A stretch of DNA of 64,000 bases from Candidatus Multivoradales bacterium. Its GTDB lineage: Bacteria; Acidobacteriota; Thermoanaerobaculia; Multivoradales; JAHEKO01. Of the stretch, positions 7,208 through 10,196 are shown piece by piece. The position numbers and the translations under genes are program-made. Where the stretch lies: the NCBI GenBank assembly GCA_965223155.1, contig CBDCVR010000013.1, positions 997,538-1,061,537 on the forward strand, in the 5' to 3' direction. Below the pieces are notes generated by a model. It was not told the origin of the DNA. It saw nothing but the letters and a program-made list of their open reading frames with translations, and ran no database searches. The first letter of the stretch is position 1, and every line of letters begins with the position of its first letter.

Positions 7208-9262
7208 ATGACGCAATTCCAAAATCCTTGTCGCCGGCTCTTCGGAGCCCTTCTCGTGACCTCGGTCCTCGGTGTGGCTCCGGCCAGCGGCAGCGACCCG
7301 CAGCTCGCTGATCCGCTGCCGCCACCGCTGTCCGAAAGCGAGACAATCCACGAGCGCATCGATGTGCACGCGCAGCGGGCGATCGTCAGGCTCTCGCACG
7401 GCGCCACCTTCGAGGACCGCGCCACCTCGCGCTATCTCCTGCGTGGCGTCCAGTACGGTGTCCTGGGCGGCATCTACAAGGTCGATACCCAGGTTCCGGC
7501 GTTGCGAGCCCAAAGTCTTGGCCAGGGGTGGTGGACGCTGCTCGACGGGCGTCCGGCCGGATGCATGCTCGAACCGGCGCACGAGAAGCCCATCTTGATC
7601 TTCAGCAAGACCGTGGCGCCGCAGACCGACGCCCTGGCCCAGGCGCTCAAGACCGCTCTCGACGAGTGCGGCTTCCGCCGGCTGGACGTTCTCGTGACCC
7701 GGGGCGGCTACCCCTGCACCGAGGCCTACGTCACGATCTCGAGCGAGCCCGTGGGGGTCGCCAACGATCCGCCCTGCCGCACCTACCCGTCCGGTCTCTG
7801 CCGCTTCTACGTTCCCACCGCGATGTACGAGTTTCGCGTCACCTGCAACAGCGAGTCGACCGACCCGGTGGGAATCTACCGGGCCGTAGCCCCCGGGGCT
7901 GGCGTCCAGACGGAAGCGTTCGATTTCGCCGGGGCTCCCGAGCCATCCACCCCACCGGCGCCGCCGCCGGCCACACCGCCGGGCACCACTCCCCCGCCGG
8001 GCTCACCGCCGGGGCAAACCACTCCGCCGCCACCGCCCACGACCAAGGGAACGCCACCGTCGAAGACGCCGCCGCCGGCGACTCCGCCTCAGGCGACACC
8101 TCCGGCCTACGGTCGCGTTCCGCTCGGCAAGCTGCCGCCGTCGACCAAAGGACCGCCGCCGACCCCCTCCAAGCTCCCCCGCACTCGGATCACCCGTCCG
8201 CCCAGCCGCCTGCGCCTTCCGGGGCGCACGGCGACGCCGCCGTCTGAACCTCCACAACCTTCGGAGCCCCCGCCCACGGGAACGCCGCCGGCGTCCGTCG
8301 CGGTACGCGACTGCCCGGTCACGCCGGTTCGTGGCGGCCCTTGCTGGACGACCGAAGACGTCATCAACTCGGCGATCGACCATCACGCCCAGAGCGCCTT
8401 GCTACGTATGTTCGCCGGCGGCGGCGTGCCGGCGGCCGAGGCCTCGCAGATCCTGTGCGCGGCCAAGGCGGGCGAGCTCGAGGGCGTGTACTTGCCGGAC
8501 CAGCAGGTCCCGGCGCTCCGCGTCCGCTCTCAGGGCGGCAATTGGTGGGAAATGATTCCGGCCGGCAGCCATTCGGTCTGCTACCAGCCACCGCCCGACC
8601 GGGCGCCGCTGATCGCCTTCAGCAAGCAGATCAAGGACGACCGCGCTCTGGTGGCGATCGCACTTTCCAACGCCTGGCACGATTGCAAGCTTCCGCCGAC
8701 CGCGCCCCGCTGCTACGTCGCGACGATCTCCAAGCCCAAGCCCGAGCTGGTCTGCCCCCCCGGCACCATCCCGGATCCCGAGGGTGAGGTCTGCGTACCC
8801 CAGGTCGTCTGCCCGCCGGGCTCGGATCCGAAACCAGACGGCACCGGCTGCGTCGAGCGCGAGTGCCCGCCCGGAACGATTCCGGACGGTGACCTCTGCA
8901 TTCTGGATCTGCCCGGAACGGTGCAGACACCGTGTACGCAATCCGAGATCGAGCAGCAGTTCCAGCAGAAGACCGACTTCTGCGCCTCGATCAAGTTCGG
9001 CCTCGACGCCGCCTGCGGCCTGGGCCAGAGTCCCTGCGATCATCTGCGGCCGGTAAAGTTCGGCTGCGACGTCTTCGAACGGATCTTCGGCAAGCCCATC
9101 CCGGGCGCCAAGCACCCGGCCTGCTCCGAGTCGAACGCCGGCTTCTACAAGAGATGCGTACTCTCGACCCTCGAGGGCGAACGCAAGACCCTACCCTGCA
9201 CACTGCCGTCAGCCAGCGACCTGCGCCAGAAGTACGACTCCTGGCCCGGGAAGCAGAAGTAA
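7208..9262 (+). CDS. secreted protein with two copies of an uncharacterised Cys-containing domain, Pro-rich linker and C-terminal CPPG-repeat Cys-rich region
   Basis: GGAGG RBS, ATG and signal peptide (LGVAPASG). Internal duplication: IDVHAQRAIV... and IDHHAQSALL... Pro/Thr-rich low-complexity region at about aa 245-360. Tandem repeats VCPPGTIPDPEG / VCPPGSDPKPDG / ECPPGTIPDGD. Confidence 0.7.
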   Translation: MTQFQNPCRRLFGALLVTSVLGVAPASGSDPQLADPLPPPLSESETIHERIDVHAQRAIVRLSHGATFEDRATSRYLLRGVQYGVLGGIYKVDTQVPALRAQSLGQGWWTLLDGRPAGCMLEPAHEKPILIFSKTVAPQTDALAQALKTALDECGFRRLDVLVTRGGYPCTEAYVTISSEPVGVANDPPCRTYPSGLCRFYVPTAMYEFRVTCNSESTDPVGIYRAVAPGAGVQTEAFDFAGAPEPSTPPAPPPATPPGTTPPPGSPPGQTTPPPPPTTKGTPPSKTPPPATPPQATPPAYGRVPLGKLPPSTKGPPPTPSKLPRTRITRPPSRLRLPGRTATPPSEPPQPSEPPPTGTPPASVAVRDCPVTPVRGGPCWTTEDVINSAIDHHAQSALLRMFAGGGVPAAEASQILCAAKAGELEGVYLPDQQVPALRVRSQGGNWWEMIPAGSHSVCYQPPPDRAPLIAFSKQIKDDRALVAIALSNAWHDCKLPPTAPRCYVATISKPKPELVCPPGTIPDPEGEVCVPQVVCPPGSDPKPDGTGCVERECPPGTIPDGDLCILDLPGTVQTPCTQSEIEQQFQQKTDFCASIKFGLDAACGLGQSPCDHLRPVKFGCDVFERIFGKPIPGAKHPACSESNAGFYKRCVLSTLEGERKTLPCTLPSASDLRQKYDSWPGKQK
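8477..8640 (+). repeat. near-identical DNA segment shared with 9578..9740
   Basis: Runs such as cgcgtccgctctcagggcggcaattggtggga and gcgggcgccgctgatcgccttcagcaagcagatcaaggacg are identical between the two paralogs. Confidence 0.7.
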
Positions 9263-9296
9263 GCAAGGGACGGAACCTGAAAGGAGCTGAACGAGC

Positions 9297-10196
9297 ATGA
9301 GAGTCCTTCGAGCCGTATCCACCGTCCTCCCTCTGTGCGCGGGCGCCGTCCTCCTCGCCATGGCTCTGGTCGCCGTCCCGGCGGCGGCCACGAGTCCTCG
9401 GGTCGCGGTCGATCAGTGCGCCGACATTCTTCCGGTTCCGGGCTGCTGGACGACCCAGGACGTGATCGACCCCCATATCGACTCCCACGCCCAGACCGCG
9501 CTCATGGGCATGCTGACGCGAGGCGGAGCCGATGGAGCCGTCGCCTCCGCCATCCTGTGCGCGGTCAAGCGGCGTCATCTCGAAGGGGTCTACCTGCCCG
9601 ACCAGGGCGTGCCCGCCCTACGCGTCCGCTCTCAGGGCGGCAATTGGTGGGAGATGATCCCGGCCGGCAGCCACTCGGTCTGCTACAAGCCGCCGCCCGA
9701 GCGGGCGCCGCTGATCGCCTTCAGCAAGCAGATCAAGGACGTCTCGACCGCGGTGGCCGCGGCCCTCACCTCGGCCTGGACCGACTGCAGCCTGCCGGCC
9801 ACGGCGCCTCGTTGCTACTTTGCCACCATTACGAAACCACCGACGCCGGTGCCGCCCGGCGGTGGCGACAGCGGCGGCGGGGACACCGACAACGGCGACA
9901 ACGGCGGCTCGACCGAGCCTCCGGCCACTGAAGGGCCCGCCACGGTCATCATCGACCTCAAACGCGGTGGCGTTCCGTACGCGGGCAAGGCCCAAGTCTT
10001 CATTGCGAATCCCGACCATCAGGAGTGGGACGTGGTCACCGGTCAGGTGACGTTCACGGTGCCGCCCGGTGTCTATAACACCGCGGCGCGCGACTACGGC
10101 CTGACCGATTGCAAACTGGGACCCGCCACGCCGATCGTGGTTCGATCGAATGACACGCTGCGGTTCTCCCTCGAAGTCCCGGAATGCCTGCCCTAA
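9297..10196 (+). CDS. secreted paralog carrying a third copy of the same domain plus a C-terminal beta-sandwich-like domain
   Basis: AAAGGAG RBS, ATG and signal peptide. Residues EGVYLPDQ.VPALRVRSQGGNWWEMIPAGSHSVCY.PPP.RAPLIAFSKQIKD are nearly identical to the 7208 gene copy. A Gly/Asp-rich linker follows. Confidence 0.7.
   Translation: MRVLRAVSTVLPLCAGAVLLAMALVAVPAAATSPRVAVDQCADILPVPGCWTTQDVIDPHIDSHAQTALMGMLTRGGADGAVASAILCAVKRRHLEGVYLPDQGVPALRVRSQGGNWWEMIPAGSHSVCYKPPPERAPLIAFSKQIKDVSTAVAAALTSAWTDCSLPATAPRCYFATITKPPTPVPPGGGDSGGGDTDNGDNGGSTEPPATEGPATVIIDLKRGGVPYAGKAQVFIANPDHQEWDVVTGQVTFTVPPGVYNTAARDYGLTDCKLGPATPIVVRSNDTLRFSLEVPECLP
9578..9740 (+). repeat. near-identical DNA segment shared with 8477..8640
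   Basis: See the paired repeat. Confidence 0.7.

Follow-up and report, generated by a model that had tools for sequence, protein, structure and literature searches.

An undescribed domain family shaped by gene conversion in putatively exported proteins encoded beside a pair of giant genes

What is the domain that recurs in two adjacent genes directly upstream of a pair of giant genes in an acidobacterial genome, and what ties it to the giants? The genes lie within 64,000 nucleotides (nt) of contig CBDCVR010000013.1 of Candidatus Multivoradales bacterium (positions 997,538 to 1,061,537 of the forward strand), the stretch analyzed here and referred to as the window, and are denoted A, B, G1 and G2 in the order in which they follow each other. 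A preliminary description of this DNA, made from the sequence alone, had reported two open reading frames (ORFs) for paralogous secreted proteins, A of 684 amino acids (aa; window positions 7208-9262) and B of 299 aa (9297-10196), carrying three copies of a domain that it could assign to no family. Both ORFs were found as described, and a hidden Markov model (HMM) of the domain family, named X hereafter, recovered two copies in A and one in B. BLASTP aligned B with A aa 355-519 at 66% identity over 166 aa and with A aa 13-154 at 34% over 151 aa; over the domain alone, copies 2 and 3 (the second of A and the only one of B) are 71% identical. The family profile places copy 2 at A aa 375-512 (E 1e-61) and copy 3 at B aa 47-182 (E 5e-62). 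The consensus first proposed for the domain describes these two copies well and fails for copy 1, which is about 31-32% identical to both of the others and is devoid of the N-terminal Cys pair.

The three copies belong to a real, widespread and undescribed family of alpha/beta domains of ~140 aa. A word-indexed search with B returned 5 relatives and gave the impression of a tiny family, which was overturned when a profile of seven copies was scored exhaustively against 1.84 billion representatives: 507 of them scored at E<=1e-3, 411 at E<=1e-10 and 57 at E<=1e-30, with lengths ranging from 130 to 1055 aa. These relatives form hundreds of 50%-identity clusters over several phyla, and X is without an entry in any of the family or structure resources searched, in line with the initial failure to place it. 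Profiles from Pfam, NCBIfam, PADLOC and PHROGs gave no match above noise for A, B, G1 or G2; no Pfam match covered X in any of the 97 family members scanned, X matched none of the Pfam toxin families, and sequence and profile searches of the PDB with X returned no match. The domain is predicted to fold confidently without a clear relative, and Foldseek searches with the X model revealed no significant neighbor among PDB and viral structures. As regards a phage origin, X was absent from IMG/VR. A degenerate DUF4157 was considered as the source of X and rejected (local hhalign probability of 0.05%). Across the family, three positions are invariant (A65, Q66 and G97 in B numbering), and I61, D62, L69, A89, K91, Y99, P106, A107, W118, P138, A156 and W161 are conserved in at least 90% of members. 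Neither HExxH nor another His/Glu motif occurs in the conserved set D62, Q66, K91, Y99, W118 and W161, and the lack of HExxH sets X apart from the zincin-like metallopeptidases (3e11 Acel_2062, 7t5t CapP, the 8s5f HExxH domain, Wss1/SprT and IrrE).

A and B each begin with what heuristics recognize as a signal peptide, judged by a hydrophobic core and a cleavage site of small residues (for B, a hydropathy maximum of 2.7 and a model helix at aa 11-24). In A, this segment leads into the divergent X copy 1 and a small Cys-containing domain; a Pro-rich linker then connects these to X copy 2, behind which comes a Cys-rich C-terminal domain [Table 1]. Protein A is a fusion of two paralog types, termed alpha and beta, that are separate genes at locus L034 (GCA_975902805.1), since its N- and C-terminal halves match two distinct genes there: an opposite-strand gene of 253 aa is 56% identical to A aa 20-240, and a gene of 325 aa is 53% identical to A aa 379-684. 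Copy 1 itself is 60% identical to the stand-alone gene at L034 10939-11700(-), and jackhmmer found the small Cys-containing domain confined to the alpha-type relatives P0133, L034_253m and P0225. The linker joins the two ancestral genes, and copy 2 has lost its own signal peptide: neither a start codon nor a signal peptide is present ahead of it in A, and the guanine-plus-cytosine (GC) content of the linker at the three codon positions (0.71/0.83/0.77) fits CCN-rich coding sequence. The C-terminal domain of A comprises three CPPGxxPD..C repeats and then a Cys-rich stretch that runs up to a terminal KYDSWPGK.

Protein B represents a third type, termed gamma, and is 43% identical to a 273-aa gene at L034. 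In the full-length AlphaFold model, X has a predicted local distance difference test score (pLDDT) of about 90 and is predicted to be joined by a disordered Gly/Asp linker (aa 186-209) to an all-beta C-terminal domain. The latter is homologous to the C-termini of P0002, P0233, P0231, P0232 and P0093; it has no Pfam match of its own, whereas relatives in the family match CarboxypepD_reg (PF13620) at the same position. B and its relatives, with X, a linker and a predicted seven-strand all-beta domain, resemble in layout secreted catalytic or binding domains that precede a CarboxypepD_reg-type beta-sandwich, from which B differs in that its C-terminal domain remains below every Pfam threshold. 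The window holds three old paralog types: alpha (divergent X and small Cys domain), beta (X and Cys-rich domain) and gamma (X and beta-sandwich).

Gene conversion acts between the X domains of the beta and gamma types, its most recent trace being a tract of 120 nt. Two of the copies had been described as nearly identical at the DNA level, with a core at 8477-8640. Over the whole domain this is too strong, as copies 2 and 3 are 76% identical over 389 nt by BLASTN and 78% identical over 300 ungapped nt according to a repeat finder. Near identity is instead found in a sharply bounded tract, 8519-8638 against 9621-9740, where codon-level alignment matches 114 of 120 nt with exact runs of 32 and 40 nt; the proposed core holds from 8519 on, and its first part, 8477-8518, is only about 70% identical. 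In the model of B, the tract would span the end of a helix, a loop and two central strands. Identical residues share the same codon at 31 of 35 positions in the tract versus 33 of 60 elsewhere in the domain (Fisher p=7e-4), and permuting the order of the synonymous differences gave p=0.01, so that the excess of identity over the rest of the domain, as supposed at the outset, goes beyond chance. Because synonymous sites are identical in the tract as well, gene conversion fits. Recent duplication, which had been offered as the alternative to ongoing conversion, does not, since beta and gamma each have a counterpart in another genome and are consequently old paralogs; each type, alpha included, has its own ortholog in L034, and recent duplication is rejected on this ground.

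Could unusually strong selection on sequence or codon use, or a recent duplication after all, account for the tract in place of gene conversion? The protein segment encoded by the tract is the best conserved of the whole domain, the tract retaining 78-83% nucleotide identity even to the homolog P0003 from another source, and the high GC content at third codon positions (GC3) makes codon sharing common: in five homologs from other genomes, the same codon is used at 133 of 232 positions of this stretch (57%). Sharing within the tract is nevertheless well above this cross-genome baseline (p=3e-4) as well as above the flanks, and the equally conserved peptide immediately 5' of the tract, ELEGVYLPDQxVPAL, differs at most of its synonymous sites. 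The age of the paralog types, with their separate counterparts elsewhere, and an independent and far larger homogenized block at locus L035 likewise speak against this explanation, which we consider very unlikely.

At L035, two tandem gamma-type genes (8078-8938 and 9260-10051) are identical at 529 of 540 nt over the signal peptide and X, and their identity drops abruptly to about 57% in the C-terminal beta-sandwich. Within genomes, beta and gamma X domains are 71% (window) and 73% (L034) identical, compared to 58-67% for same-type counterparts between genomes; the alpha type is distinct, sharing 60% identity with its own counterpart and about 32% with the other types. Concerted evolution limited to X is thus recurrent in this clade, L035 being an independent and stronger case. 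The L035 block itself represents either a far larger conversion block or else a swap of the C-terminal module. The paralogous genes tufA and tufB are an example of concerted evolution by gene conversion, and the X genes resemble them in the patchy tract with identical synonymous sites between old paralogs and in the greater likeness of X within a genome than between same-type counterparts across genomes. Unlike in the tuf genes, the tract is short and affects one domain of multidomain proteins that are otherwise entirely different, which makes these genes a clear, small case of concerted evolution inside multidomain proteins.

In the wider family, X usually occupies the N-terminus, immediately behind a leader, and the C-terminal modules that come next vary or are missing altogether; many members consist of little beyond the leader and X (130-210 aa). 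Of 151 X segments, 49 are preceded by a signal-peptide-like N-terminus and 26 by a GRWxRRG-type leader, whereas 35 are internal. The consensus of this leader, GRW(V/I/F)RRGxxIVLLP, has no Pfam match; it replaces the signal peptide in a distant branch of the family and may be an undescribed export or packaging signal. At L005 2266-5474, in a Longimicrobium metagenome-assembled genome, a leader of this type heads three adjacent genes, two for X proteins and, between them, one for a trypsin-like protease, and the recurring neighbors at such loci are a sigma-54 activator (6), Amidohydro_2 (5), PG_binding_1 (4) and an M20 peptidase (3). The Cys pair C129/C164 (B numbering) is present in 47 of the 49 signal-peptide members versus 7 of the 26 members with the GRWxRRG-type leader. 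The pairs C50/C173 and C41/C88 occur exclusively in the clade to which A copy 2 and B belong, bringing the covarying Cys pairs of the closest X clade to three. That the Cys pairs track the signal-peptide class fits oxidative folding of A and B outside the cytoplasm.

The fusion partners of X include CarboxypepD_reg (after X in 9 of the 97 members scanned), DUF4157/eCIS_core (6), PG_binding_1 (4), Trypsin_2 (4), hemopexin, OmpA, Amidase_2 and M35. DUF4157, also known as PVC-metallopeptidase, sits N-terminal to the toxin domains of contractile-injection-system effectors, and a role as a releasing peptidase has been proposed for it; the placement of one module on alternative trafficking parts is a pattern of polymorphic toxins (Geller et al. 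2021, PMC8213781; Zhang et al. 2012, PMC3482391). DUF4157 directly precedes X in seven of about 150 family members, P0090, P0095, P0193, P0201, P0227 and P0229 among them, and is missing from A and B. P0229 (L038 1758-3320) consists of DUF4157, X and a Cys-rich C-terminal domain as in A, to which it is 35% identical over 308 aa (E 5e-47) with a common terminal motif, KY(R/D)(S/A)WPG(R/K). Similarly, P0090 carries two DUF4157 domains, X and a C-terminus resembling that of the signal-peptide protein P0003. X with an A-type C-terminus is thus found behind a signal peptide (A and L034_325) or behind DUF4157 (P0229), and X with a P0003-type C-terminus behind a signal peptide (P0003) or DUF4157 (P0090), demonstrating that a cassette of X and its C-terminal module is reused modularly behind alternative N-terminal parts. 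In this, X proteins resemble polymorphic toxins and effectors, where one C-terminal module is placed on alternative N-terminal trafficking domains. The family and the known DUF4157 effectors have in common that some X relatives carry DUF4157 before X, one of them with the X and Cys-rich module of A; A and B differ from those effectors in their signal-peptide-like N-termini and the lack of DUF4157, and in that no injection gene is found among the window genes scanned. The usage of X, as a modular, exported, effector-like cassette with conversion between paralogs, is an already known pattern, whereas X itself and the module of G1, G2 and X are undescribed in every resource searched.

A and B lie immediately upstream of the giant pair on the same strand, as had been pointed out, with gaps of 34 nt between A and B and 36 nt between B and G1; G1 and G2 overlap by 34 nt. 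A simple pattern scan of window positions 6800-20600 predicted no promoter and yielded two weak terminator-like matches, fewer than shuffled sequence gives. The spacing of the four genes is operon-like. G2 has 75 homologs spanning Acidobacteriota, Verrucomicrobiota, Actinomycetota and others, none annotated and none with Pfam domains, and a G1 homolog stands immediately 5' of the G2 homolog at every locus examined. The family profiles of G1 and G2 found no match in the PDB, and G1 and G2 show no similarity to one another, excluding that they are mutual paralogs. The C-terminal part of G1 carries an invariant FGGGGF / Gly-rich hydrophobic stretch, and G2 starts with a conserved 'IWTxLPNG'. G1 has a twin-arginine sequence motif, judged against the pattern (S/T)RRxFLK with a hydrophobic region after it (SRRTLLGLAGAATVGL in the window; L036 has SRRDFLKCFSAAA and L007 has SRRELLGMAGVAAV), which is missing in the Actinobacterial and some other homologs. 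At L007, the motif-bearing G1 homolog has a TatA/B/E gene (4462-4677) about 440 nt upstream. The small and large subunits of NiFe hydrogenases illustrate 'hitchhiker' export by the twin-arginine translocation (Tat) pathway, in which a folded complex is exported with a signal-less partner. Judging from motifs and gene order, G1 and G2 may be comparable, with a twin-arginine motif in G1 and a signal-less G2 always directly after it; in contrast to the hydrogenases, the two would total about 330 kDa, and some G1 homologs are without the motif.

The preliminary description had suggested that one ask whether homologs of the domain always neighbor homologs of the giants. In the closest clade, X proteins lie beside G1 and G2 homologs at four of five informative loci with varying gene order. 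The window has A-B-G1-G2; L034 has G1-G2-beta-gamma, and its alpha gene is on the opposite strand; the isolate Desulforhopalus singaporensis (L036) has G1-G2-X-X, and L001 has G2-X-X. That adjacency recurs at 50-68% GC and in differing gene orders argues for a selected linkage. A universal link is ruled out by giant pairs without X and by distant X proteins without giants. Six G1-G2 loci (L006, L007/L008, L031, L032, L033 and L037) have no X within 10 kb, as checked for five of them by searching all six frames with the HMM at E<=1; the 12.5-kb contig of L035 carries two close X genes and no giants; and giants were found beside more distant X proteins at none of 22 metagenome loci. The X-less pairs and the giant-less L035 indicate that the coupling in the closest clade is facultative, if repeated. 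One of the X-less pairs (L037, IMG/VR UViG_3300004093_000021, 6538-14335) is the only G1-G2 pair found on a contig classed as viral, of 16.7 kb. The linkage makes two parts of protein 'dark matter' approachable together, and because D. singaporensis is a cultured isolate, it can be tested there.

How do these observations bear on what A and B do? Our tentative reading, to which we assign a probability of about 45%, is that A and B are Sec-exported, disulfide-bonded proteins, effector-like or ligand-binding, that serve as putative partners or cargo of G1-G2, with X as their functional core. Both would leave the cytoplasm through Sec and acquire three disulfides by oxidative folding in the periplasm or beyond the cell, where they would act with the G1-G2 complex. 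X would contribute a conserved surface of D-Q-K-Y and two Trp, the C-terminal modules would tune targeting, and gene conversion would hold the X domains alike while these modules diverge. Among the roles initially listed for A and B, their architectures, as far as sequence can tell, would suit an exported effector-like module better than a chaperone. Several observations weigh against this interpretation. X displays no recognizable catalytic motif, and its beta-sandwich and PG-binding partners are binding modules, not toxins. Injection-system genes (sheath, tube, baseplate, AAA) were found in 0 of the 14 window genes scanned (2821-33567). At distant X loci, 143 neighbor ORFs had hits to 70 families, and the 25 commonest of these include no such gene either. 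In the window, L034 and L036, no candidate immunity gene is conserved next to X. The DUF4157-bearing relatives lie on contigs too short to show injection-system genes around them (4.7 kb for P0229), and the six X-less giant pairs and L035 count here as well. A more far-reaching proposal would have G1 and G2 form an unrecognized Tat-linked, two-giant envelope machine or surface structure with disulfide-bonded X proteins as its dedicated cargo or effectors, and X a new effector fold deployed via at least three routes (Sec with G1-G2, DUF4157 with contractile injection, and the GRWxRRGxxIVLLP leader under sigma-54 control); we regard it as doubtful. Whichever way X acts, its cassette is deployed in an effector-like manner, behind a Sec signal, the toxin-associated DUF4157 or a third, undescribed leader.

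The main rival to a functional core is that X is a constant docking or adaptor domain, inactive itself, which attaches variable C-terminal 'heads', such as a beta-sandwich, Cys-rich domain, protease or PG-binding module, to a shared partner, here G1-G2, and whose common docking surface is preserved by gene conversion. The N-terminal position of X ahead of varying modules is what such a domain would show, as are the raised similarity of X within genomes and the L035 homogenization, which stops where the signal peptide and X end; the placement of X between DUF4157 and the extreme C-terminal domain also recalls the pre-toxin domains of polymorphic toxins (PMC3482391). A pure adaptor is hard to reconcile with the many proteins made of a leader and X only, and most X proteins have no G1-G2 nearby to dock to. 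The conserved polar residues D62, Q66, K91 and Y99, moreover, look more like a functional site, and we find this rival rather unlikely. It has also to be asked whether the giants matter at all, since A and B could be autonomous periplasmic or cell-envelope proteins, for instance binding or modifying the cell wall, whose adjacency to G1-G2 reflects a shared island or shared regulation. Fusions of X with PG_binding_1, OmpA-like and Amidase_2 domains and a muramidase among the neighbors are compatible with this view, and so is the occurrence of X without giants and of giants without X. Yet adjacency persists at four loci differing in GC content and gene order, the window cluster has operon-like spacing with neither a promoter nor a convincing terminator predicted in it, and the structure searches revealed no match of X to known cell-wall hydrolases. 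Autonomy is therefore, in our estimation, quite improbable, and we retain the partner or cargo reading of A and B.

Table 1 Coordinates of the features of the A-B-G1-G2 cluster in the window
Feature	Window positions	Strand	Evidence
Gene A, 684 aa, fusion protein	7208..9262	+	ORF, GC3 0.84
A, signal-peptide-like N-terminus (aa 1-27)	7208..7288	+	Hydrophobic core LFGALLVTSVLGVAPASG, maximum 12-residue hydropathy 2.2 (heuristic)
A, X copy 1, divergent alpha type (aa 35-160)	7310..7687	+	Family HMM, E 3e-44
A, small Cys-containing domain after copy 1 (aa 161-240)	7688..7927	+	jackhmmer
A, Pro/Thr-rich linker of ~125 aa (aa 240-365)	7925..8302	+	Composition; short imperfect tandem repeats
A, X copy 2, beta type, 6 Cys (aa 369-512)	8312..8743	+	Seed-profile HMM, E 3e-75
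A, gene-conversion tract (aa 438-477)	8519..8638	+	114/120 nt identical to 9621-9740
A, Cys-rich C-terminal domain (aa 513-684)	8744..9262	+	Shared with L034_325/P0086, P0096, P0229
Gene B, 299 aa: signal peptide, X, Gly/Asp linker, beta-sandwich	9297..10196	+	ORF, GC3 0.83; full-length AlphaFold model
B, X copy 3, gamma type, 6 Cys (aa 41-182)	9417..9842	+	Seed-profile HMM, E 3e-75; AlphaFold pLDDT 96, predicted template modeling score (pTM) 0.89
B, gene-conversion tract (aa 109-148)	9621..9740	+	114/120 nt identical to 8519-8638
B, predicted all-beta C-terminal domain (aa 215-293)	9939..10175	+	Seven strands in the model, pLDDT 84-91
G1, 1565 aa, twin-arginine motif	10233..14930	+	SRRTLLGLAG motif
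G2, 1515 aa, no signal sequence	14897..19444	+	75 homologs

The GC content of the window is 67.6%, and a codon-position GC filter keeps A, B, G1 and G2 as four successive genes on the plus strand, A being preceded by a GGAGG 6-10 nt before its ATG. No tRNA or Rfam elements were found near the cluster. A gene for a protein with DUF4332 and CarboxypepD_reg (window 20522-21556) lies downstream of G2 and a gene for a DUF1326 protein (6145-6906(-)) on the opposite strand of the upstream flank; neither is kept beside the cluster in L034 or L036. All window proteins that were looked up are singletons at 90% identity, indicating that the source organism is without close sequenced relatives. Finally, an ORF of 1032 aa overlapping G2 (16990-20088, plus strand) was rejected as an off-frame, high-GC artefact, as it failed the GC3 filter that the frame of G2 alone passes, and its weak tblastn match to L001 corresponds to off-frame low-complexity similarity.

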